Virus record (IMG/VR): IMGVR_UViG_2671180294_000014
Strand: one strand, 5' to 3'
Length of the DNA: 33,339 bases
From: a virus
Taxonomy: Duplodnaviria > Heunggongvirae > Uroviricota > Caudoviricetes
Under the pieces are notes generated by a model, which saw only the letters and a program-made list of their open reading frames with translations, did no database searches and was not told the origin of the DNA. The stretch's first letter is position 1. Every line of letters starts with the position of its first letter. Position numbers and translations under genes: made by a program. Positions 1 through 25,185 of the stretch are shown in pieces.

Positions 1-981
1 TTATAACGTCACTCCGCCTTTTAGTGGATTCAGAGCGACGGCATTTTGCAGATAGTCAGGCGCAAGGTGCGCATAGGCCATCGTCTGCTGAATGCTCGCA
101 TGTCCCAGAATCTGTTGCAGTGCGATTATATTGCCCCCATTCATCATGAAATGGCTTGCGAATGTATGCCGCAGGATGTGGGTTGCCTGATTGGGTGGTA
201 TATCAGGTTTCACTCTGCGTAAAATCCCGCAAAATTTCTCATAATCAACTTTGAATAATTTGGCGCTGGCCTCCTCTTTAACTTTTTTCTCCAGTTCCTC
301 AGAAATCGGCACGGTTCGCTTTTTACCGTTTTTGGTTTTCAGGAAGGTAACCCTGCAATTTGTAATCTGTGCTGGTTTTAGCGTGGCAACTTTCGTCCAT
401 CTTCCTCCAGTGCTCAGACATAAAAGCGCGACAAGTAAGTCATCACCAGCCAAAACATTTAACAGTTTTTCGATTTCTGCTTTTTCCAGGAACGTCATTT
501 CAGGGTTGGCCTCCGCCAGTGGCGGCAGTCCGTGAATTGGGTGTTGCCCGGAAAATTCATCCAATTGAATTAATTTTGTGAACATGCCGGATAATCTGTA
601 CATGTCACGGTTTATCGTTGCGGCACTGATACCATCACGTAGTCGCATGGAACGATAATCCATCAAAGCCCTTTTGCTCATCCTGCTCACTGGTATATCA
701 CCTATGCCGCTGATGGTTTTGAGTAGATGATTAAACTCTTTTGTTCCATGCTCGTGGTTTTGCCCGTGATATTTCCACCAGATGTCCAGCAACTCACTCA
801 AAGTCCGGCGGTCTGCTCGCTGGCCTCCCCATTCTTTCTGACTGGCATTGGCGATTGTGTATCGCTCAAATGCTAGTGCTTCAGCTTTTCTTTCGAATTT
901 CCTGCGGATGCGTTTTCCGTCGCGACCGCGAGGTCTAATGTCCACTTCATAGCGACCATCATCGAGCTTCTTAATTGCCAT
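1..981 (-). CDS. int: Tyrosine integrase (P2 Int family)
   Basis: The protein starts MAIKKLDDGRYEVDIRP like P2 Int, and the C-terminal HxLRHTFAS...Y catalytic region is present. ATG at 981 is preceded by GGAGGG. The ORF-track start at 1011 adds 10 aa with no homologue. The stop codon is at 1-3. Confidence 0.95.
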   Translation of the reverse strand: MAIKKLDDGRYEVDIRPRGRDGKRIRRKFERKAEALAFERYTIANASQKEWGGQRADRRTLSELLDIWWKYHGQNHEHGTKEFNHLLKTISGIGDIPVSRMSKRALMDYRSMRLRDGISAATINRDMYRLSGMFTKLIQLDEFSGQHPIHGLPPLAEANPEMTFLEKAEIEKLLNVLAGDDLLVALLCLSTGGRWTKVATLKPAQITNCRVTFLKTKNGKKRTVPISEELEKKVKEEASAKLFKVDYEKFCGILRRVKPDIPPNQATHILRHTFASHFMMNGGNIIALQQILGHASIQQTMAYAHLAPDYLQNAVALNPLKGGVTL

Positions 982-1050
982 AAGAAAGCCCTCCGGCGCT
1001 GTATTCACCATCTTGGTAGCAAATGGTGAAAATGTAATCTTTATATAGAG

Positions 1051-1344
1051 TTAGCCAATCCTTTTCGCGGAGTGGTTGGACTCTGTTGACTCTGGCCCAA
1101 TGTGCGCGAGAGCCGGTGCGATTTGTCCTGCGTCCGGCGCGGTTTTATCTGTCATAAGCCATAGAGCATATTTTTGGAATGTGGGATGCATAGTGATTTT
1201 TAGCAAAGCTGTGCCACCGGGTTCAAAGTTTCCTCCTTCATATTTTTTAAGTGTGCTTAGCGGTAACTCTATGATTTCACAGAATTTTGATTGGCTTAGC
1301 CCTTCAGCCTCACGCAAGGCCTTAATCTTTTCGCTTAATTTCAT
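1051..1344 (-). CDS. C: Immunity repressor C (HTH, P2 C-like but divergent N-terminal half)
   Basis: The 97-aa protein has an XRE-type HTH (LSQSKFCEIIELPLSTLKKYEGG) and a C-terminal ...QIAPALAHIG... matching my memory of P2 C. It is positioned between int and cox, divergent from cox. Confidence 0.9.
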   Translation of the reverse strand: MKLSEKIKALREAEGLSQSKFCEIIELPLSTLKKYEGGNFEPGGTALLKITMHPTFQKYALWLMTDKTAPDAGQIAPALAHIGPESTESNHSAKRIG

Positions 1345-1403
1345 TTGACATGGTGCCTATATAGGGACTAAATTCCCTCAAAACTGGAACCTATATAGGT
1401 TCC
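1345..1403. promoter_or_regulatory. Immunity switch region with a candidate early promoter Pe and two copies of the palindrome CCTATATAGG (candidate C operators)
   Basis: The candidate Pe is TTGACA at 1345-1350, an 18-nt spacer, then TAAATT at 1369-1374. CCTATATAGG occurs at 1356-1365 and at 1390-1399. The second copy is embedded in the perfect 18-bp palindrome GGAACCTATATAGGTTCC (1386-1403). Assigning these to C binding is inference. Confidence 0.45.
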
Positions 1404-1465
1404 ATTGATTTGAGAATAAACCAGCGTCTAAACGGTTTTGAGTGGTTTAGAAAGGGCTGGATCCT

Positions 1466-1753
1466 ATGAGGGTACCATATATGGACGCTGAAAATTATGT
1501 GATTCAGTATCCGCTTGATGCGGTTCATGTGGATAAATTTGCTGATTTATTAGGGAAGCCAAAGACAGCCGTCAGTGAAATGGTGAAGGCAAATAAATTA
1601 CCAATTATTGAATTGCGTGATCCTTGCAAACCGAAGGCTCGTGCCGGTGAAAAATGGGTTTTCATTCCTGAGTTTAATCGCGCTGTACGTGAGGCGTTTT
1701 ATAACCGACCGGTTGAACAGCGTGATGCATGGCTTTTGTGGATGGGGTTGTGA
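1466..1753 (+). CDS. cox: Cox (excisionase / early transcriptional regulator)
   Basis: It is similar to P2 Cox (…KLPIIEL…AGEKWVFIPEFN…RDAWLLWMGL) and is the first gene of the rightward early operon. An alternative start at ATG 1481 has a better SD (GAGGG). Confidence 0.85.
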   Translation: MRVPYMDAENYVIQYPLDAVHVDKFADLLGKPKTAVSEMVKANKLPIIELRDPCKPKARAGEKWVFIPEFNRAVREAFYNRPVEQRDAWLLWMGL

Positions 1754-1755
1754 TT

Positions 1756-1926
1756 ATGAATGAGCCGCGTTGTATTGCTCAGTTATTGCGTAACGAAAGC
1801 CCTAGGGCGATTGACTTCACCATCACCCACGGGAAGGGTCGCAAGGGAATCATTATCCGCACCAAAAAACAGAGTCCGTTAAAAAAGGCTCTGACCTTTC
1901 TGAAAAGCCGGAGGGTCTGGAAATGA
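1756..1926 (+). CDS. Small early protein (P2 orf78 position)
   Basis: ATG at 1756 lies 2 nt after the cox stop. The gene ends in an ATGA overlap with the start of B (1923-1926). Assignment is by position in the P2 early operon; function is unknown. Confidence 0.6.
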   Translation: MNEPRCIAQLLRNESPRAIDFTITHGKGRKGIIIRTKKQSPLKKALTFLKSRRVWK

Positions 1927-2423
1927 CAGTGATGACGCTCAATCTCGTCGAAAAACAGCCAGCAGCTATGCGCCGGATAATTGGTAAGCATCTTGCCGTC
2001 CCTCGTTGGCAGGATACATGTGATTATTATAATCAGATGATGGAGCGCGAACGGCTAACAGTTTGCTTTCATGCGCAGTTAAAACAACGTCACGCAACGA
2101 TGCGTTTTGAAGAAATGAACGACGTCGAACGTGAACGGCTGGTTTGTGCAATTGATGAATTGCGTGGGGCATTCTCAAAACGCCGTCAGGTTGGCGCAAG
2201 TGAGTATGCATATATTAGTTTTTTAACAGTCAGTCAGCGTCGTACTTTATTTATGCATGCCGGATTGACTGAAAAAGAATTCAATCAGCCATACTGGCGA
2301 ATTAATGAAGAGTCATGTTACTGGCGTGATGCTTTATTCCGTGCATTACGTGAACTATTCAGTCTGTTTGAGTATGCACCGACAATTCTGACGTCGGTAA
2401 AACCAGAGCAATATTTGCATTAA
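1923..2423 (+). CDS. B: Replication protein B (DnaB helicase loader-like)
   Basis: 166 aa, the same length as P2 gpB and near-identical by recall (MTVMTLNLVEKQPAAMRRIIGKH...). Confidence 0.93.
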   Translation: MTVMTLNLVEKQPAAMRRIIGKHLAVPRWQDTCDYYNQMMERERLTVCFHAQLKQRHATMRFEEMNDVERERLVCAIDELRGAFSKRRQVGASEYAYISFLTVSQRRTLFMHAGLTEKEFNQPYWRINEESCYWRDALFRALRELFSLFEYAPTILTSVKPEQYLH

Positions 2424-2486
2424 ATAATTAACCAGAGTTTTTAACGCACTTAATTGTGCGGGGCTTCTTTTTGCCTGGAGAAAGTC

Positions 2487-2711
2487 ATGCATACAGTTTC
2501 TGAAAATCAGTGCGGTAAATACGCATTACTGCTGCAACAGGCCAGAACCGAAGCACAGGCCGACGCTGCGACGCGCTTTTCTTCTCATCTTGACGCCATG
2601 ATTCGCCATATCACAAAGGCGGAGTTATCCCGCGTGGAGATAGTCGAGCTGCTCAGTCAGGAGTCGGAAAAATTTCACAATATCGGATTGTCTCGCGGGG
2701 AGGTGCTTTGA
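2487..2711 (+). CDS. Hypothetical early protein (P2 orf80 position)
   Basis: ATG at 2487 is preceded by GGAGA. The ORF-track start at 2454 is an upstream non-ATG extension. Synteny with P2. Confidence 0.7.
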
Positions 2712-3010
2712 TGTCCTGTTCTCATTCAGTTGTATTACTGAATAACGCCTTAAAAATCGCCGTTATGAAAAATGGCGACTTGTCTCTTATTCAACTTTGT
2801 CTTGATAAAGAAAAACGCGACATCACTGAATCTGTTATCGCGATTTATCAGAATGAATTAAACCTCCTGTCTGATGTGGTCAATTTACTTGTTAAACGCG
2901 CTGTATTCCACAAGCAAATTTCCTCAGTGGATGAACTGACAAAATTAACGACAGAACTTGCCAGTTATTGCGCTGATGTATCCAGGAAACTTAACGATAA
3001 AAGGAGCTGA
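2711..3010 (+). CDS. Hypothetical early protein (P2 orf81 position)
   Basis: ATG at 2711 overlaps the upstream TGA (TGATG), with GGAGG upstream. Synteny with P2. Confidence 0.7.
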   Translation: MSCSHSVVLLNNALKIAVMKNGDLSLIQLCLDKEKRDITESVIAIYQNELNLLSDVVNLLVKRAVFHKQISSVDELTKLTTELASYCADVSRKLNDKRS

Positions 3011-3012
3011 TA

Positions 3013-3237
3013 ATGCCGGACAACATAGATTTTATTCAGGAACAACAGGCTGAATTACTGGAGCGCCAGATTAACGCGGCAAGGGTAAAACATTGCGGTG
3101 CTTCTGCGCTGGTTTGCGAAGAGTGTGACGCGCCAATTCCTGCTGCCCGTCGTGCGGCTTATCCGTCAGCCACGCGTTGTGTTTCCTGTCAGTCAGTCTT
3201 TGAAGCAAAAAACAAACATTACCGGAGAACGGCATGA
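3013..3237 (+). CDS. TraR/DksA-type C4 zinc-finger protein (P2 orf82 position)
   Basis: Two Cys pairs, CEECDAPIP...RCVSC, match the DksA/TraR C4 pattern. The protein is 74 aa. Confidence 0.8.
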   Translation: MPDNIDFIQEQQAELLERQINAARVKHCGASALVCEECDAPIPAARRAAYPSATRCVSCQSVFEAKNKHYRRTA

Positions 3238-3509
3238 GTATTCGTATTGAAATTGGCGAACGTTATGTCGTTACCAGTGACAGCTTCCAGTTTATTCTCC
3301 ACGAGAAAAAGAGAGCGGAAAGCGGTAAAAACGCCGGTCAGGAATGGCTGGCGGTGGTTGGTTATTACCCGAAATTAAGCCAGCTCGTTTCCGGCCTGAT
3401 GCATCACGATATTCTGACCGGAAGCGCAAAGTCTTTTGCTGATTTAAACGCGCAGGTTGAGCAACTCAGCAAGCGTTGTTCAGAGGCTTTTGGCTCATAT
3501 GGCCGTTAA
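3234..3509 (+). CDS. Hypothetical early protein (P2 orf83 position)
   Basis: ATGA overlap with the preceding gene. The 3' end overlaps the start of A. Synteny with P2. Confidence 0.7.
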   Translation: MSIRIEIGERYVVTSDSFQFILHEKKRAESGKNAGQEWLAVVGYYPKLSQLVSGLMHHDILTGSAKSFADLNAQVEQLSKRCSEAFGSYGR

Positions 3510-5796
3510 AGCCTCCGGGCGTTTTGTCCCTCCGTCAGCATTTGCTGCAGGCACCGGTAAGGCGTTTACCGGTGCTTATGCATGGAACGCGCCACGCGAG
3601 GCTGTCGGGCGCGAAAGACCCCTTACACGTGACGAGATGCGTCAGGTGCAAGGTGTTTTATCCACGATTAACCGCCTGCCTTACTTTTTGCGCTCGCTGT
3701 TTACGTCACGCTATGACTACATCCGGCGCAATAAAAGCCCGGTGCACGGGTTTTATTTCCTCACATCCACTTTTCAGCGTCGTTTATGGCCGCGCATTGA
3801 GCGTGTGAATCAGCGCCATGAAATGAACACCGACGCGTCGATGCTGTTTCTGGCTGAGCGTGACCACTATGCGCGCCTGCCGGGAATGAATGACAAGGAG
3901 CTGAAAAAGTTTGCCGCCCGTATCTCATCGCAGCTTTTCATGATGTATGAGGAACTCAGCGATGCCTGGGTGGATGCGCATGGCGAAAAAGAATCGCTGT
4001 TTACGGATGAGGCGCAGGCTCACCTCTATGGTCATGTTGCTGGCGCTGCACGTGCTTTCAATATTTCCCCTCTCTACTGGAAAAAATACCGTAAAGGACA
4101 GATGACCACGAGGCAGGCATATTCTGCCATTGCCCGTCTGTTTAACGATGAGTGGTGGATTAGTCAGCTTAAAGGCCAGCGTATGCGCTGGCATGAGGCG
4201 TTACTGATTGCTGTCGGGGAGGTCAATAAAGACCGTTCTCCTTATGCCAGTAAACATGCCATTCGTGATGTGCGTGCACGCCGCCAGGCAAATCTGGAAT
4301 TTCTTAAATCGTGTGATCTCGAAAACAGGGAAACAGGCGAGCGCATCGACCTTATCAGTAAGGTGATGGGCAGTATTTCTAATCCTGAAATTCGCCGGAT
4401 GGAGCTGATGAACACCATTGCCGGTATTGAGCGTTACGCCGCCGCAGAAGGTGATGTGGGGATGTTTATCACGCTGACCGCGCCGTCAAAGTATCACCCG
4501 ACACGTCAGGTTGGAAAAGGCGAAAGTAAAACCGTCCAGCTAAATCACGGCTGGAACGATGAGGCATTTAATCCAAAGGATGCGCAGCGTTATCTCTGCC
4601 GTATCTGGAGCCTGATGCGCACGGCATTCAAGGATAATGATTTACAGGTCTACGGTTTGCGAGTCGTCGAGCCACACCACGACGGAACGCCGCACTGGCA
4701 TATGATGCTTTTTTGTAATCCACGCCAGCGTAACCAGATTATCGAAATCATGCGTCGCTACGCGCTCAAAGAGGATGGCGACGAAAGAGGAGCTGCGCGA
4801 AACCGTTTTCAGGCAAAACATCTTAATCGGGGCGGTGCTGCGGGGTATATCGCGAAATACATCTCAAAAAATATCGACGGCTATGCACTGGATGGGCAGC
4901 TCGATAACGATAGCGGCAGACCGCTGAAAGATACTGCCGCGGCTGTTACCGCATGGGCGTCAACGTGGCGCATTCCGCAATTTAAAACGGTTGGCCTGCC
5001 GACAATGGGGGCTTACCGTGAACTACGCAAATTGCCTCGCGGCGTCAGCATTGCTGATGAGTTTGACGAGCGCGTCGAGGCTGCACGCGCCGCCGCAGAC
5101 AGTGGTGATTTTGCGCTGTATATCAGCGCGCAGGGTGGGGCAAATGTCCCGCGCGATTGTCAGACTGTCAGGGTCGCCCGTAGTCCGTCGGATGAAGTTA
5201 ACGAGTACGAGGAAGAAGTCGAGAGAGTGGTCGGCATTTACGCGCCGCATCTCGGCGCGCGTCATATTCATATCACCAGAACGACGGACTGGCGCATTGT
5301 TCCGAAAGTGCCGGTCGTTGAGCCTTTGACTTTAAAAAGCGGCATCGCCGCGCCTCGGAGTCCTGTCAATAACTGTGGAAAGCTCACTGGTGGTGATACT
5401 TCGTTACCGGCTCCCACACCTTCTGAGCACGCCGCAGCAGTGCTTAATCTGGTAGATGACGGTGTTATCGAATGGAATGACCCGGAGGTTGTGAGGGCGC
5501 TCAGAGGTGCATTAAAACACGGACTGAGAAGACCAAACCGTCAGCAAAGAAACGGAAGCCCGTTAAAACCGCATGAAATAGCGCCATCGGCCAGACTGAC
5601 CCGGTCGGAACGAATGCAAATTACCCGTATCCGCGTTGACCTTGCTCAGAACGGTATCAGGCCGCAGCGATGGGAGCTTGAGGTGCTGGCGCGTGGGGCA
5701 ACCGTAAATTATGACGGGAAAAAATTCACTTACCCGCTCGCTGATGAGTGGTCGGGATTCTCAACAGTATTAGAGTCAAACTCAGTGAAGCGTTAA
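3499..5796 (+). CDS. A: Replication initiation endonuclease A (rolling-circle Rep)
   Basis: From ATG 3499 the protein reads MAVKASGRFVPPSAFAAGTGK..., as in P2 gpA. It contains the HUH-like EPHHDGTPHWHMM motif and the YIAKYISK tyrosine motif. The ORF-track start at 3457 is an upstream extension overlapping orf83. The P2 ori is known to lie inside the 3' part of A; I did not locate it here. Confidence 0.95.
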   Translation: MAVKASGRFVPPSAFAAGTGKAFTGAYAWNAPREAVGRERPLTRDEMRQVQGVLSTINRLPYFLRSLFTSRYDYIRRNKSPVHGFYFLTSTFQRRLWPRIERVNQRHEMNTDASMLFLAERDHYARLPGMNDKELKKFAARISSQLFMMYEELSDAWVDAHGEKESLFTDEAQAHLYGHVAGAARAFNISPLYWKKYRKGQMTTRQAYSAIARLFNDEWWISQLKGQRMRWHEALLIAVGEVNKDRSPYASKHAIRDVRARRQANLEFLKSCDLENRETGERIDLISKVMGSISNPEIRRMELMNTIAGIERYAAAEGDVGMFITLTAPSKYHPTRQVGKGESKTVQLNHGWNDEAFNPKDAQRYLCRIWSLMRTAFKDNDLQVYGLRVVEPHHDGTPHWHMMLFCNPRQRNQIIEIMRRYALKEDGDERGAARNRFQAKHLNRGGAAGYIAKYISKNIDGYALDGQLDNDSGRPLKDTAAAVTAWASTWRIPQFKTVGLPTMGAYRELRKLPRGVSIADEFDERVEAARAAADSGDFALYISAQGGANVPRDCQTVRVARSPSDEVNEYEEEVERVVGIYAPHLGARHIHITRTTDWRIVPKVPVVEPLTLKSGIAAPRSPVNNCGKLTGGDTSLPAPTPSEHAAAVLNLVDDGVIEWNDPEVVRALRGALKHGLRRPNRQQRNGSPLKPHEIAPSARLTRSERMQITRIRVDLAQNGIRPQRWELEVLARGATVNYDGKKFTYPLADEWSGFSTVLESNSVKR

Positions 5797-5882
5797 CTCA
5801 ATAAATATGAGTTTATAAGTTAGGCCTCGAGATTTTGTAGAAAGGGATGTATACTGAGTATCGTATAGATTTGGAGTGAGTG

Positions 5883-6905
5883 ATGACTGTAAAGGTGATA
5901 GACCTTTTTTGTGGTGCTGGCGGATTAACTCATGGTTTGCAGCTTGCGGGGCTTGATGTCGTTGCAGGCATTGACCTTGAGGGGGAATGTAGGTTTCCCT
6001 ATGAAAGAAACAATAAATCTAAGTTTATTGAGCAAGATATCGCTAAAGTAACAAAAGAGGAACTGCTGAGGCTTTATGGTGATGCGTCTGTAAAAGTATT
6101 GGCAGGATGCGCACCTTGCCAACCTTTTTCAAAATATACTCAAGGAAAAGATAAGGCTGATGATAAAAAATGGCCTCTTCTTTATGAGTTCGAACGTTTA
6201 ATTCGCGAAGTATCTCCAGAAATCGTAACAATGGAGAACGTTCCTGATGTAACTAAACATAAAGTTTATAATGATTTTTATAATTCATTGTTAAAGTTGG
6301 GCTATTATGTTTGGGCGTCTAAGATTGATTGTGTCGAATATGGAATCCCACAAAACCGTTCCCGTCATGTATTGTTGGCCTCAAAATTGGGGGCGATTGA
6401 GTTAGTAAAACGTGACGATGTTATTTTGAAAACAGTTAGAGATGCAATAGGAAATCTTCCTCCATTAGAAGATGGCCAAACAGATCCAAATGATATATTA
6501 CATAGAGCCAGTAAATTAAATCCGATTAATAAAAAAAGAATTATACACTCTGTTCCTGGTGGTACATGGAAGGACTGGCCGAAAGAGTTGGTTGCCGCTT
6601 GTCATATGAAATCCAGCGGTAAAGGGTATGCTAGTGTATATGGGCGCATGTCTTGGGATAAGCCAAGTCCAACAATTACAACTCTTTGTTATGGTTTCGG
6701 GAATGGGCGTTTTGGACATCCAGAACAGCATAGAGCGATTTCTCTTAGAGAGGCTGCTTTATTGCAAACTTTCCCGATGGATTATATTTTTGTAGAAGAC
6801 AAAAACAAGTTTGTTATAAGAAGTATTGGGAAAATGATAGGTAATGCTGTTCCTGTGGAACTAGGAAAAGCAATTGGGCAATCAATCAAGAACCATTTAG
6901 AATGA
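5883..6905 (+). CDS. DNA (cytosine-5) methyltransferase
   Basis: Canonical C5-MTase motifs are present: I DLFCGAGG, IV GCAPCQPFS, VI TMENVPDV, VIII QNRSRHVLLAS, IX-like RMSWDKPSPTITT, and X GNAVPVELG. GGAG lies 6 nt upstream of ATG 5883. The gene is AT-rich and has no P2 counterpart. Confidence 0.93.
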   Translation: MTVKVIDLFCGAGGLTHGLQLAGLDVVAGIDLEGECRFPYERNNKSKFIEQDIAKVTKEELLRLYGDASVKVLAGCAPCQPFSKYTQGKDKADDKKWPLLYEFERLIREVSPEIVTMENVPDVTKHKVYNDFYNSLLKLGYYVWASKIDCVEYGIPQNRSRHVLLASKLGAIELVKRDDVILKTVRDAIGNLPPLEDGQTDPNDILHRASKLNPINKKRIIHSVPGGTWKDWPKELVAACHMKSSGKGYASVYGRMSWDKPSPTITTLCYGFGNGRFGHPEQHRAISLREAALLQTFPMDYIFVEDKNKFVIRSIGKMIGNAVPVELGKAIGQSIKNHLE

Positions 6906-6911
6906 TAAAAT

Positions 6912-6928
6912 GGCCTGCTTTACAGGCC
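6912..6928. terminator. Stem-loop shared by the converging methyltransferase and HEPN genes (candidate bidirectional terminator)
   Basis: GGCCTG-CTTTA-CAGGCC sits between the two stop codons (6903-6905 and 6935-6937). It has A/T-rich flanks on both sides. Confidence 0.55.
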
Positions 6929-6934
6929 TTATAA

Positions 6935-7615
6935 CTATTGTTCTAAATATTCATTATTATTTATATAGTGCTCTATATTATTCACGATAGCATCAAGATA
7001 GGCGATTACTTCTAATGAAATATTCTCTAAGTCCTGATATGAAACATTTTTTCCAATCTCAGCAAATGATACATTGCCATGAGATAAATCATTACGATGT
7101 TGTTTAACAGTGGCTAATTTTTCACCATGTTTAGTGTGAGTGTAATCGGAATGTGTAGAAAAACCATATATTTTCGATTTTTCTTTGATTTCCTCTCTAT
7201 CAATATTTCCTGAGAATATTTTCTTTTTGTTGAACGTGCCATAAGATATACCGCAAGATATACCTTTGGTAAGGTGATTAACTAAACTTTCAACATTTAC
7301 AGATTCATTTTTTAATCTTTTTAATATTTCTGACCTGAGATTTTTCCTGAGTTTGTCAAATTCTACGTTTCTATCATAAATAGTCTCATGAATAAGGCAG
7401 ATAGCTTCTCTCATTGTTGATTCAATGAGGTTATATAACAGTATATATACTGCTCCCTTTAGAGTTTTTCGTGATTGAGCAGTAATGGAGAACTTATGTT
7501 CTTTATCATCAGCTGATATCAGTTCTGCACCGGCATACTCAATAAATTTCAAAAGATCCAAATAGGCCAAGATCTCTCCTGACCTTTCGTCAAAATCCTC
7601 ACGAAAACGATCCAT
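6935..7615 (-). CDS. Stand-alone HEPN-domain protein (predicted RNase-type effector)
   Basis: The 226-aa protein looks helical. An R-x4-H motif, RNDLSH (residues 174-179, nt 7079-7096), lies near the C-terminus. It resembles the family usually annotated as MAE_28990/MAE_18760 HEPN-like nuclease (from memory). Its ATG lies 1 nt after the upstream gene's stop. Confidence 0.75.
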   Translation of the reverse strand: MDRFREDFDERSGEILAYLDLLKFIEYAGAELISADDKEHKFSITAQSRKTLKGAVYILLYNLIESTMREAICLIHETIYDRNVEFDKLRKNLRSEILKRLKNESVNVESLVNHLTKGISCGISYGTFNKKKIFSGNIDREEIKEKSKIYGFSTHSDYTHTKHGEKLATVKQHRNDLSHGNVSFAEIGKNVSYQDLENISLEVIAYLDAIVNNIEHYINNNEYLEQ

Positions 7616-7616
7616 G

Positions 7617-8759
7617 TTAATCCTCTAATAATTTATCCCGAACATATTCAATTCGTTCAATTACCTTCACGCGACTATTAGCTCCGTCGGAAGTGGTCAA
7701 TCGTTTGAATTCTTCTGAGCTTAGCCAATCTAAGTTCTTGGGAACAAGGTCAGGGACTTCACGTAATGCAAGTGCTGCGCCAACAGCGAGAGATTCGAAT
7801 CTAACTCGAGGTGTAGATTTTGCAGTAATAGTTTTCTTGAATCCTGCTGGGAAATAGTTTTCAACAAAAGATAGAACATTAGCAAACTCTTGTTTCATTG
7901 AGTTTTGTTTAGTTTCGTCTATATCTCGATTTTCTGACATATAGTCATTTAGAAAATCCCGTACGGAATGATCAAAGTTCTTGTACTTATCTACGTAGGC
8001 AAAGAATCTTAATGTAAATTCTAACCGTTCATCTCGTTTTTCTTTAGTCTGAGATAAAGGTGCTAATTCTTTAAATTTAGGTATTGTTGAGCATGGCTTA
8101 ATAACCTGTGTATATAAATTTGTTGAACCAAGTTCTGATCCTTTACGGACTTCCATATCTTTCAATATATCGCTGCCAGAGTTAATACGCTCAAAAAGAT
8201 CTCTACGGGTTTCTTCATTGCATTTAGAACTCAATTCTATAACGCGGACAGGAATTCTCATGAAACGACGTTGACGTGATAATGGTAAATCTTGGAATTT
8301 GAAACCATTAAGGACGTCTAAAGATTTCAGGTCTTGTAAAACTAATTCATTTTGGATAAAAGCGTGTATAGTCCTAACTCGTTGTGAGCCATCAACAATC
8401 TCAATTCGCCCATCTAAATCGGGATCTTCGGAGAGAACATCTGCTATAAATATATATGGTATAGGAAAACCCAAAATCAAAGACTCTATCAATTTTGATT
8501 GTCTTTTTTCACTCCAAACAAAATCCCTTTGATAATCAGGAACAAAGAGTTCGTTAGTATCATCCTCTAATCCGTTATGATACTTATTAACTAATAACTC
8601 AACGGTAAATTCTTTGGTCTCAAAATCCACATCCTTTTGCTCAGCACGAATTTGCTCTTCAGCGTTTTGCTTTATCACCTCTAGCTGAGCAAGCAACTCT
8701 GCTCTTTTCTTGGCATTATCTTCATTTTCTAGTTGAGATTTTAAATCAATAATGTCCAT
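7617..8759 (-). CDS. DUF262 (ParB/Srx-like NTPase domain) protein with an N-terminal coiled coil and no fused nuclease domain
   Basis: DUF262 hallmarks are present: VPDYQRDFVWS and IVDGSQR (nt 8379-8393). ATG at 8759 is preceded by AAGGGA; the ORF-track start at 8777 is a TTG extension. I see no DUF1524/His-Me motif in the C-terminal half. Confidence 0.8.
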   Translation of the reverse strand: MDIIDLKSQLENEDNAKKRAELLAQLEVIKQNAEEQIRAEQKDVDFETKEFTVELLVNKYHNGLEDDTNELFVPDYQRDFVWSEKRQSKLIESLILGFPIPYIFIADVLSEDPDLDGRIEIVDGSQRVRTIHAFIQNELVLQDLKSLDVLNGFKFQDLPLSRQRRFMRIPVRVIELSSKCNEETRRDLFERINSGSDILKDMEVRKGSELGSTNLYTQVIKPCSTIPKFKELAPLSQTKEKRDERLEFTLRFFAYVDKYKNFDHSVRDFLNDYMSENRDIDETKQNSMKQEFANVLSFVENYFPAGFKKTITAKSTPRVRFESLAVGAALALREVPDLVPKNLDWLSSEEFKRLTTSDGANSRVKVIERIEYVRDKLLED

Positions 8760-8944
8760 GTCTAGTTCCCTTAACAAGTGTTAAAAATTGAAGCGGATAG
8801 CATACCGCATAGATCATGAAAAATGCCATCATGTGCATGGATTTGCATGCGTCAGAAGTCGCTTTTATTGTTAGTTATCACTAGCGCTGGCGTGCTCTTG
8901 GAGTGTTCATGCAACTGCATTAAAACCGCCCCATGAAGCGGGCG

Positions 8945-8963
8945 GGCGAGGCGGGGAAAGCAC
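8945..8963. other. cos: cos site (19-nt P2 cohesive end sequence)
   Basis: GGCGAGGCGGGGAAAGCAC exactly matches my memory of the P2 cohesive end and start of the P2 genome. It lies between the hotspot and Q, as in P2. Confidence 0.85.
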
Positions 8964-23124: not shown

Positions 23125-23652
23125 ATGCAGCATTTGATAAATATAACGGCAGGTAATCCAAAAACGGTTGAACAATATCAATTGACAAAGGACTTTGATG
23201 TTGTCTGGTTTTTTTCAGAAGATGGTAAGAACTGGTACGAAGAACAAAAGTATTTTGCTGATGACACGATAAAAATAGCGTACGACAAAGATAATATTAT
23301 CCGCTATGTGGAAAAGGATGTGACAGCTATCAGACCGGATGGATTAAGTGTTGTTGAAGTGCCGGATATTACTGCTAACCGACGGGCGGACATTTCAGGG
23401 AACTGGATGTTTAAGGACTGTACAGTGATTAAACGAATTTATACGGCAGAGGAATTGCAGCAGCAGGCAGAAAATCGGAAAGCCAGACTTCTTGCAGATG
23501 CTGAATCCGTGATTTTGCCGCTGGAGCGCGCTGTCAGGCTGAATATGGCAACAGATGAGGAGCGCAGTCGACTGGAGGCATGGGAACGCTACAGTGTTCT
23601 GGTCAGTCGTGTGGATCCTGCAAATCCTGAATGGCCGGAAATGCCGCAATAA
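23125..23652 (+). CDS. G: Tail fibre assembly chaperone G
   Basis: 175 aa. The C-terminal half matches P2 gpG (…[34 protein letters not shown]), while the N-terminal half is divergent. Confidence 0.93.
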
Positions 23653-23766: not shown

Positions 23767-25185
23767 CTACATCGGGCTCTTATATGGGGAATGAGAGTTT
23801 TTGAAACGCGGTTCTTCATGCTTCGGACTGTAAATTCTTGCATGATTATCTATCACAACTTTACTTCCAAGAATATCTCGAGCTTCTCCTAACGACCACA
23901 CAGTAGAAAGATCATTAGTCAAATTTCGATAGAGAGCACGAAACCCCTTGGGTTTTTTAAGATCATATAAGAAATCAGGAACTTTAACTTTAAAATTAAA
24001 GGTCGGTAGTTTCGGAAGGGAATTAATAGCCGCAACAGTATTGTATACATGTACAAGCTTAGTTACAGGTACACCTTGTCTAGTCTTGAGCCCATACTTA
24101 GTTCGAATATAATCTGATTCTTTCGATACTTCAGTAAGCAATGCTCTTACTGACTTATTAGCTTGAGGCAATTCATTTTCATCAAACAAGCGCTTTATTT
24201 CTCGCATTTTCTCACGGGCCCTTACAAATTCGTTGTTGTCCCTTATGTTATAAGCAGCTTCAACAATACAACTTGGATCACCAGTTTCTTTTGCGAGCCA
24301 TGCCGAAAATAAAGGAAGCGAAGTTGCTGTTGCTACAGCTTTACCACCAGAATGAATATCAATGAGATCATGACTTAACGAAGTGGAAAAGTTTTCTACA
24401 ATATGTTTAGCATAGTCAAAACCATACTGACAGTTTTGGCTTAAATATGTCTGTTGATACGCCTGACGTAATGGATATAAAAAAGTATCTGCTTGAAGGT
24501 ACTTAGCTGTGAGAGAATAAAATACTGCCCGATTAGCCAGCCATACAAGCGAAGCCACGAATGCTTTGATTGCATCTGATGCTTCACCAGCAGATGTGCC
24601 ATCCCCCCATTTTGCTCCGGGAACTTTGTACCCCTTGCGAATAGGGTTGCCAAATCGATCGAGAAGTTCAACATCGCCATTTGTTCTATTACCAGACTCA
24701 GCAGCATCACGCAGTTCTGAAAAAATGGCAGCAGCAATGTTACCATATTTTTCAAACTCCTTACCTCCATCAGATAAGTTCTTCAGTGTTAGATGATAAA
24801 CACTTGAACTAATGTCCCATGTACATATGATATGTGTCTGAAGAAGTTCAATTAGTTTTTTAAAATCGTCATTAACAAATGTTCCACCACGAATTTTAGG
24901 TTTCAATGCATCAGATATTTTTTTTGCTTCACTTTCAATTTCATCCAACCCATATTGTGCTTTATCAAGAAATAATATCTCTCTGAAACTTGAAATCCTA
25001 CTCCCACGGTACTCTGGAATATAATCATCAACCGCGATAACGTGATCATAGAACAAAATAGACTGTATATAGTTCTCAAATGCTATTATGTCTGTATCTA
25101 CTGAGTCCTTCGATCTTGTTTTTACTTTCCCCTCGATTCTTTGGACTGCAGTTAGAGTTGAATTATCAATCAGTGCGTATGTCAT
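23767..25185 (-). CDS. Hypothetical 472-aa protein with no recognisable domain (cargo of the Z/fun hotspot)
   Basis: It is a long uninterrupted AT-rich ORF with ATG at 25185 and an AAGGAA SD 6 nt upstream. It lies opposite to both flanking late operons and has no P2 counterpart. I could not find nucleotide-binding, nuclease, TM or HTH motifs by eye. Confidence 0.8.
   Translation of the reverse strand: MTYALIDNSTLTAVQRIEGKVKTRSKDSVDTDIIAFENYIQSILFYDHVIAVDDYIPEYRGSRISSFREILFLDKAQYGLDEIESEAKKISDALKPKIRGGTFVNDDFKKLIELLQTHIICTWDISSSVYHLTLKNLSDGGKEFEKYGNIAAAIFSELRDAAESGNRTNGDVELLDRFGNPIRKGYKVPGAKWGDGTSAGEASDAIKAFVASLVWLANRAVFYSLTAKYLQADTFLYPLRQAYQQTYLSQNCQYGFDYAKHIVENFSTSLSHDLIDIHSGGKAVATATSLPLFSAWLAKETGDPSCIVEAAYNIRDNNEFVRAREKMREIKRLFDENELPQANKSVRALLTEVSKESDYIRTKYGLKTRQGVPVTKLVHVYNTVAAINSLPKLPTFNFKVKVPDFLYDLKKPKGFRALYRNLTNDLSTVWSLGEARDILGSKVVIDNHARIYSPKHEEPRFKNSHSPYKSPM

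Follow-up and report, generated by a model that had tools for sequence, protein, structure and literature searches.

A cytosine-5 methylase linked to a DUF262-HEPN gene pair in a P2-like prophage: a candidate methylation-coupled defence cassette

Why does a gene for a cytosine-5 (C5) DNA methylase converge on a DUF262/HEPN operon within a prophage? The question is raised by the IMG/VR virus record IMGVR_UViG_2671180294_000014 (33,339 nt; the whole stretch is hereafter the window), which corresponds to approximately an entire P2-like prophage of the E. coli/Shigella P2 type. Its three genes of interest code for a C5 methylase of 340 aa (5883-6905, plus strand), a HEPN protein of the MAE_28990 family of 226 aa (6935-7615, minus strand) and an NsnA-like DUF262 protein of 380 aa (7617-8759, minus strand); the open reading frames (ORFs) thus bear out the convergent layout described in an earlier, sequence-only reading of the locus. 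That reading had left three explanations side by side: the methylase marks self DNA for a system with restriction-modification (R-M) logic, it is an orphan anti-restriction function or unrelated cargo sharing the same site, or the pair tolerates 5-methylcytosine (m5C) and senses other modifications. The co-occurrence data presented below favour the first as the best supported of the three. We estimate at roughly 0.6 the probability that the triad is a methylation-coupled, R-M-like defence cassette with a ribonuclease (RNase) effector, carried as lysogenic-conversion cargo of the prophage.

The linkage was examined from the side of the pair by a scan seeded with the DUF262 protein, using one genome per species. 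It returned at least 578 relatives, of which the best 80 (45-83% identity) were examined; their loci span Gammaproteobacteria, Bacteroidota, Planctomycetota, Acidobacteriota, Verrucomicrobiota, Cyanobacteria, Campylobacterota, Nitrospira and Leptospira. The HEPN gene lies immediately downstream of the DUF262 gene in 78 of these 80 loci, and the remaining two end at a contig edge. Eight loci were excluded because their flanks were too short to judge the presence of a methylase. Among the 72 assessable loci, a C5 methylase gene is directly adjacent in 66 (approximately 92%), located 2 to 7.5 kb away in four, and not in view in two. The adjacent methylases are orthologous to that of the window in 56 cases (phmmer E values of about 1e-100 to 1e-140) and belong to other C5 clades in 10. 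That methylases of other clades stand in at 10 loci suggests that m5C marking itself is required. Co-occurrence of the methylase clade and the pair had been proposed as a test of their relationship, and this outcome strongly supports both co-acquisition and functional coupling.

Loci with more complex surroundings extend this picture. In Alcanivorax sp. (locus L077, 1-13812), a C5 methylase, an SNF2 helicase, an Eco57I/MmeI-type N6 methylase, DUF262, HEPN and a 1,328-aa helicase are encoded together; the pair there appears to be embedded in a DISARM-like operon, in an arrangement reminiscent of BrxU in BREX. Locus L068 carries a partial orthologous methylase approximately 7.2 kb upstream, as does L077, and its ORF layout is similar to those of L064 and L071, which have large ORFs upstream and whose flanks may stop short of any methylase. 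In L041 (9041-13206), the gene for a 667-aa GHKL (HATPase_c_3) ATPase is inserted between the methylase and the pair, so that two alternative partner modules of the methylase clade are united at one locus. Separately, L019, L047, L060 and L196 have the DUF262 gene broken into two frames; the adjacent orthologous methylase is intact in three of these, and L047 keeps only a weak methylase remnant. Decay of an 'R-like' gene with retention of the 'M' gene is familiar from R-M systems.

The triad was also found on plasmids of Roseomonas, Polaromonas, Phaeobacter, Rhizobium, Azospirillum, Sinorhizobium and two Rhodococcus (Actinomycetota), at 37-47% identity, as well as in a Klebsiella record (84%), in Moraxella phages and in the P2-like phage P2_4B2. 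HEPN-seeded look-ups recovered it in two of three cases, and the plasmid, phage and HEPN-seeded samples are consistent down to approximately 34-37% identity. Across 127 triads, the DUF262 and HEPN genes face a convergent methylase gene in 85, follow a codirectional methylase gene in 38, and precede it in 4; stop and start codons often overlap. The existence of three layouts argues that selection holds the genes together, rather than that one ancestral order has been preserved. That the triad is conserved in different phyla, with three gene orders, whether on chromosomes, plasmids or phages, also upholds the proposal that the three genes were acquired jointly. From these comparisons, the methylase, DUF262 and HEPN genes form a single ancient module that has been widely transferred, not independent cargo.

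The relationship is different when seen from the methylase. In a methylase-seeded sample of 160 loci from metagenomes and IMG/VR, all assessable loci whose methylase is at least 62% identical to that of the window carry the pair. The pair is missing from 88 loci, in which methylase identity is 55-61% and the neighbouring families include SNF2-type helicases (35 loci), GHKL (HATPase_c_3) ATPases (25) and Vsr (27). Thus, judging from gene neighbourhoods, the dependence runs one way: the pair is almost never found without a C5 methylase, and the methylase clade seems to serve several partners. R-M logic predicts this asymmetry: the component that is dangerous relies on the mark, and the enzyme that makes the mark can exist without that component. 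An independent distribution had been named beforehand as a finding that would refute coupling. Members of the methylase clade are indeed found beside DISARM-like and GHKL partners in loci that lack the pair, and coupling is not refuted by this for the reason just given.

Specificity in C5 methylases is set by the target-recognition region. In the clade of the window methylase this region (aa 185-300, window positions 6435-6782) is better conserved than the catalytic core (relatives L083-L242), also in members that partner DISARM-like (SNF2) or GHKL genes, where mean identities to the window protein are 66% versus 54%. Because the region is conserved and determines specificity, the clade probably shares one recognition sequence, which would serve as a common self-mark. 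Motif counts within the window carried no information on that sequence.

To compare the evolution of the three proteins, the 127 triads were reduced to 104 non-redundant ones. Mantel correlations of pairwise distances, uncorrected for shared phylogeny, gave r = 0.83 for DUF262-HEPN, 0.32 for methylase-DUF262 and 0.36 for methylase-HEPN (all p <= 5e-4). DUF262 and HEPN therefore behave as one unit, with the methylase as a looser, exchangeable partner. In the same set, conservation of catalytic residues is at least 97% in each of the three proteins. At that threshold the methylase has 83 conserved positions, including all motifs and positions of the target-recognition region; DUF262 has Y82-Q83-R84 and D129-G130-x-Q132-R133 (numbering of the 386-aa form); and HEPN has N62, E65, G136-N137, R174 and H179.

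The window methylase itself is intact. It matches Pfam PF00145 over its full length (aa 5-337, E = 3.4e-58) and NCBIfam TIGR00675 (E = 1.5e-37), and its best PADLOC profiles are DrmMII (1.2e-90) and MTase_II (6.7e-89). The five canonical C5 motifs listed in the sequence-only reading were all located: motif I (FxGxG) as FCGAGG at aa 9 (nt 5907), motif IV with the catalytic Cys as PCQ at aa 78 (nt 6114), motif VI as ENV at aa 118 (nt 6234), motif VIII (QxRxR) as QNRSR at aa 157 (nt 6351) and motif X as GNAVP at aa 320 (nt 6840). A database protein of 340 aa that is 100% identical (P0121) occurs on 754 contigs and carries a name from Shigella sonnei. Program-made ORF calls begin at GTG 5880 for the methylase and at TTG 8777 for DUF262; annotated homologues begin at ATG 5883 (340 aa) and ATG 8759 (380 aa), each of which is preceded by a plausible ribosome-binding site, and ATG 5883 is the likely start of the methylase. 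The gene should not be scored as an orphan methylase in annotation.

Signals around the methylase gene are less distinct. Upstream of it, a consensus scan detected a promoter-like site, TCGAGA-17-TATACT (5827-5855, plus strand; 9 of 12 matches), which is weak evidence, as sites of this type show no enrichment over shuffles. The 29-bp gap between the convergent stop codons holds the hairpin GGCCTGTAAAGCAGGCC (6912-6928), with a 7-bp stem including 5 GC pairs, and from its sequence it is a probable terminator. A terminator shared by the two transcription units, as had been suggested, is plausible given this hairpin, but the scan found it terminator-like on the minus strand only. The similar AT-rich composition of the three genes was corroborated: GC content at third codon positions (GC3) is 0.29 for the methylase, 0.26 for HEPN and 0.27 for DUF262, compared with 0.54-0.71 for the gpA, portal and terminase genes.

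On the opposite strand, the DUF262 and HEPN genes are separated by 1 nt between stop and start. The HEPN protein matches PF18737 (E = 5.8e-29), which places it in the MAE_28990 family, and carries an intact Rx4-6H motif (RNDLSH, an Rx4H form, at aa 174); we propose it as the RNase effector. It matched no PADLOC profile up to E = 10, and neither did the HEPN proteins of its relatives. The DUF262 protein, the proposed DNA sensor, matches PF03235 (E = 8.2e-26), displays the motifs YQR and DGSQR, and could be extended to TTG 8777. NCBIfam gave no match for either protein, and in PHROGs both fall only into families of 'unknown function'.

The sequence-only reading had regarded the DUF262 protein as a GmrSD-type, modification-dependent enzyme, next to which a cytosine-modifying neighbour would be logically awkward; cleavage by GmrSD depends on DNA modified with hmC, glc-hmC or m5C. 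This premise does not stand. The DUF262 nucleoside triphosphatase (NTPase) domain is present, but DUF1524 is not, and the neighbouring HEPN is not GmrD; the GmrSD identity was hence rejected, and the gene should not be scored as GmrSD in annotation. The protein matches instead the NsnA profile PDLC03877 (E = 1.7e-54, profile positions 25-376 of 385) and, with a lower score, the PD-T4-2_A profile PDLC04027 (E = 2.5e-35, aa 79-378). GmrSD-like profiles (HEC-05/06, SspE) match it only at aa ~70-145, about 70 N-terminal residues. No DUF1524/HNH or PD-(D/E)XK nuclease domain was recognised in it with Pfam or PADLOC, and the PADLOC type II restriction enzyme profile PDLC03418 (REase_II) matches the DUF262 region weakly (E = 9.4e-6; 1e-12 for relatives). 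SspE and a DndI-type protein are among its closest structural matches. On these profile matches, we take it to be NsnA-like, with a predicted ParB-type NTPase domain, a helical C-terminal DNA-binding domain and no nuclease domain. As it is not GmrSD, the awkwardness of a cytosine-modifying neighbour is removed.

How does the cassette relate to known systems? Its operon type was already catalogued by comparative genomics and is related to validated systems. Table 1 of Anantharaman, Makarova, Burroughs, Koonin and Aravind (2013, Biol Direct 8:15) lists a MAE_28990 HEPN operon that includes a ParB nuclease and a DNA methylase, and the window is an instance of it: a PF18737 HEPN with an Rx4-6H motif lies next to a ParB-like (DUF262) gene and a DNA methylase gene in a neighbourhood that is conserved across lineages (66/72). 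The 2013 survey gives a one-line table entry and the generic hypothesis that R-M-linked HEPN proteins are PrrC-like second-line RNases, without quantification, experiment, methylase clade or phage context. New beyond it are the asymmetric linkage, the conservation seen in the target-recognition region and the location in the P2 hotspot. Our literature search found no mention of MAE_28990 beyond that survey.

Reviews place DUF262 in GmrSD, BrxU, SspE, Menshen, Dazbog and PD-T4-2. The last is a DUF262 gene followed by a HEPN gene, as in the window, and the window DUF262 protein matches its first component. PD-T4-2 comes from ECOR65; it was cloned as a 1.8-kb fragment that has no methylase, and it protects against T4 in K-12 as well as in its native strain (Vassallo et al., 2022). 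As its two ORFs lie within 1,540 bp, its HEPN must be shorter than that of the window, which belongs to a clade linked to a methylase. A review assigns the PD-T4-2 HEPN to PF18735; by Pfam the window HEPN belongs to another, longer family, and the PADLOC search did not identify it as a PD-T4-2_B-type partner. NsnA of Menshen (NsnABC) combines ParB-DUF262 with a ParBDB DNA-binding domain and is a proposed DNA sensor (PMC12065111). The window DUF262 protein matches NsnA along its full length, but the locus lacks the NsnB ABC-ATPase/DUF3696 and NsnC and has in their place one HEPN gene and then the convergent methylase gene; a true Menshen locus (L257) provides the contrast. GmrSD/BrxU and SspE/DndI are fusions of ~560-600 aa with a DUF1524 His-Me nuclease, whereas the window DUF262 protein has 380 aa and no DUF1524, the modification made by its partner is m5C, and a separate HEPN protein is the proposed effector. 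Compared with type II R-M, the methylase is present and linked, but no DNase fold was recognised beyond the weak REase_II match.

DISARM was considered because DrmMII is the top PADLOC profile of the window methylase and members of its clade adjoin SNF2 helicases. Characterised DISARM DrmMII enzymes methylate CCWGG or MTCGAK, motifs that are possible leads to that of the window methylase, which matches the DrmMII profile. Membership was rejected: the cargo consists of three genes, without drmA (helicase), drmB (DUF1998), drmC (PLD), drmD or drmE, and DISARM-like partners occur only in other loci, not in the window.

A mechanism can be proposed that accounts for these features. The C5 methylase would mark one fixed motif on lysogen DNA with m5C. 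The NsnA-like DUF262 protein, through its ParB-type NTPase and C-terminal DNA-binding domains, would read DNA and tell marked self from unmarked incoming molecules; on unmarked DNA it would activate the tightly co-evolving HEPN RNase. Cleavage of RNA by HEPN, either phage transcripts or host tRNA/rRNA, would then stop the infection. In this scheme we infer unmethylated DNA as the trigger, the sensor and effector roles, RNA as the target and the anti-phage activity. The operon of the 2013 HEPN survey, the validated PD-T4-2 system and the proposal of NsnA as a sensor are precedents that we count in favour of the cassette. A more ambitious version, to which we would give slightly less than even odds, is an epigenetic self/non-self system with its restriction step on RNA, following R-M in logic and being abortive or transcript-targeting in execution, in which the methylase clade, conserved in specificity, provides a shared self-mark for three unrelated sets of effectors, namely DUF262-HEPN, DISARM-like helicases and GHKL ATPases.

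Several observations weigh against a methylation-coupled cassette. An intact pair with conserved motifs (43.5% identity) is carried by E. coli and Salmonella IncF plasmids with no nearby methylase gene. On the E. coli IncFIA/IncFIC plasmid NZ_CP137740 (L245, 4025-5725) there is none within 4 kb; fragments of Tn3, IS21 and IS66 lie on either side of the pair, and the same element occurs in H44-H48, with at least six plasmids of E. coli and Salmonella carrying it. A pair lies among housekeeping genes on a 1.5-Mb metagenomic contig with no methylase gene nearby, and a Roseomonas plasmid has a pair of 29% identity without one. Such intact pairs imply that loss of the methylase is not always lethal. 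The relative PD-T4-2 defends without a methylase. In Peduovirus P2_4B2 (NC_049387; L243, 1997-3179), which carries a divergent triad allele at the same hotspot (identities of 45% for DUF262 and 72-76% for the methylase), one frameshift at the GGTW codons splits the methylase gene, whose annotated product has 234 aa; this could reflect a pseudogene, phase variation or a sequencing error. In class 1 DISARM, whose C5 methylase is DrmMII, deleting the methylases causes no autoimmunity, and by analogy the parallel with R-M may be a soft one here too. Co-evolution of the methylase with the pair is weak (r = 0.32), the Mantel test ignores shared phylogeny, and the loci examined were the best 80 of each scan. 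As the literature search yielded no experimental work on the methylase-linked triad, its entire function is deduced. Below approximately 30% identity, DUF262 relatives belong to other architectures, namely Menshen and pairs with a short HEPN on IncX1 and Acinetobacter plasmids.

Other explanations assign different roles to the same genes. Following Anantharaman et al. (2013), the locus could be a classical R-M system with a fail-safe: the ParB/DUF262 protein would be a DNase acting on unmethylated DNA, and HEPN a PrrC-like second line, kept inactive by its partner protein and released for suicidal RNA cleavage once restriction is blocked. The 2013 survey calls the neighbour a 'ParB nuclease' and draws an analogy with PrrC-PrrI, the PDLC03418 match falls in the DUF262 region, and the convergent layout resembles R and M genes of type II systems. 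Yet neither type of nuclease domain sought was recognised, the full-length similarity is to NsnA, a proposed sensor, and in BrxU, SspE and HEC-06 the corresponding motif DGQQR is used for NTP hydrolysis, DNA being cut by another domain; we regard this explanation as unlikely, though worth taking seriously. Alternatively, m5C on resident DNA might switch the DUF262 sensor on, as phosphorothioate does for SspE, so that a pair deprived of its methylase would be inert, not toxic. The persistence of intact methylase-less pairs on several plasmids and one chromosome fits such licensing, as do the stimulation of the SspE NTPase by self-modification and the structural resemblance to SspE and the DndI-type protein. 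It leaves unexplained how methylase-less relatives such as PD-T4-2 defend alone, and the tight linkage would equally be expected under R-M logic; we consider it distinctly improbable.

The two remaining explanations separate the methylase from the pair. In one, the pair acts like a type IV system that senses a different, foreign DNA modification, and the methylase is a tolerated function that travels with it. GmrSD and BrxU are modification-dependent DUF262 enzymes, and T4, the phage on which PD-T4-2 was selected, has heavily modified DNA; such a system provides no reason for the ~92% adjacency of C5 methylases, for three conserved gene orders, or for the C5 methylases of other clades that replace the usual one, which makes it very improbable, and the idea of an m5C-tolerant pair sensing other modifications is left unsupported. 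In the other, the methylase is an orphan phage anti-restriction or epigenetic function, and its presence beside an unrelated two-gene defence system in the P2 hotspot is fortuitous. Orphan methylases are frequent in phages, and the clade is also found without the pair, but the triad extends far beyond P2 phages to chromosomes and plasmids of many phyla, often with codirectional, overlapping genes, and all E. coli copies carry three genes. Since hardly any pair lacks an adjacent C5 methylase, outside phages as well, independent cargo is effectively refuted.

If the methylase does provide the self-mark of the cassette, methylation-based self-recognition would drive an RNase and not a DNase. This would also account for the recurrence of a single methylase clade, its recognition domain frozen, next to widely differing defence effectors. 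The triad is widespread, with at least 578 DUF262 relatives among species-representative genomes and a HEPN family of 1,232 clusters at 50% identity (E <= 1e-10). It is compact (3 kb) and as a system absent from PADLOC 2.0, where the HEPN protein is without a model. The copy in an E. coli/Shigella P2-type prophage is an E. coli-native handle with which the predictions can be tested directly in E. coli K-12, and the IncF pair represents a natural 'methylase-deleted' case.

The genomic setting of the triad is that of P2 cargo. In the window, the integrase gene (1-1011, minus strand) and the gene for the replication protein gpA (3457-5796, plus strand; PF05840, E = 2e-123) precede it, and the portal and terminase genes follow from 9131 onward, as annotated in homologous E. 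coli loci. The string GGCGAGGCGGGGAAAGCAC, located exactly at 8945-8963 on the plus strand, is presumably the P2 cohesive-end (cos) sequence and marks the right edge of the hotspot. The mobile three-gene cassette occupies 5813-8849, as delimited with E. coli GN04592, in which an 89%-identical copy lies behind other upstream genes (aligned at query positions 17-3053 of window segment 5797-8900). A sliding-window dip in GC content coincides with this island of approximately 3 kb (34-42%, versus 52-58% in the flanks and 51% for the genome). Position and composition are those of the tin/old cargo of P2, which lies between replication gene A and cos/portal Q, is low in GC and swappable, and whose site was termed a defence hotspot (Rousset et al., 2022). 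DUF262 is not mentioned in the main texts of that paper and of its 2026 follow-up, to which our search was confined.

Of 5,426 complete E. coli genomes, nine contain any part of the cassette, and each of them has all three genes, placed at the same P2 hotspot; in one, the copy reaches only 89% identity and stands behind different upstream genes. A megablast of the cassette against 50,697 phage records returned no match, so a search at the protein level is needed to trace phage relatives. A second low-GC island (GC 38%, GC3 0.27) contains an ORF of 472 aa (23767-25185, minus strand) between a tail-fibre assembly gene (23125-23652) and a structural gene (25596), at the Z/fun-type P2 hotspot. The ORF has no Pfam or PADLOC match, and its sole match, along the entire protein, is phrog_13435 of 'unknown function' (E = 1e-293). 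It is a candidate for an uncharacterised prophage defence or cargo gene.

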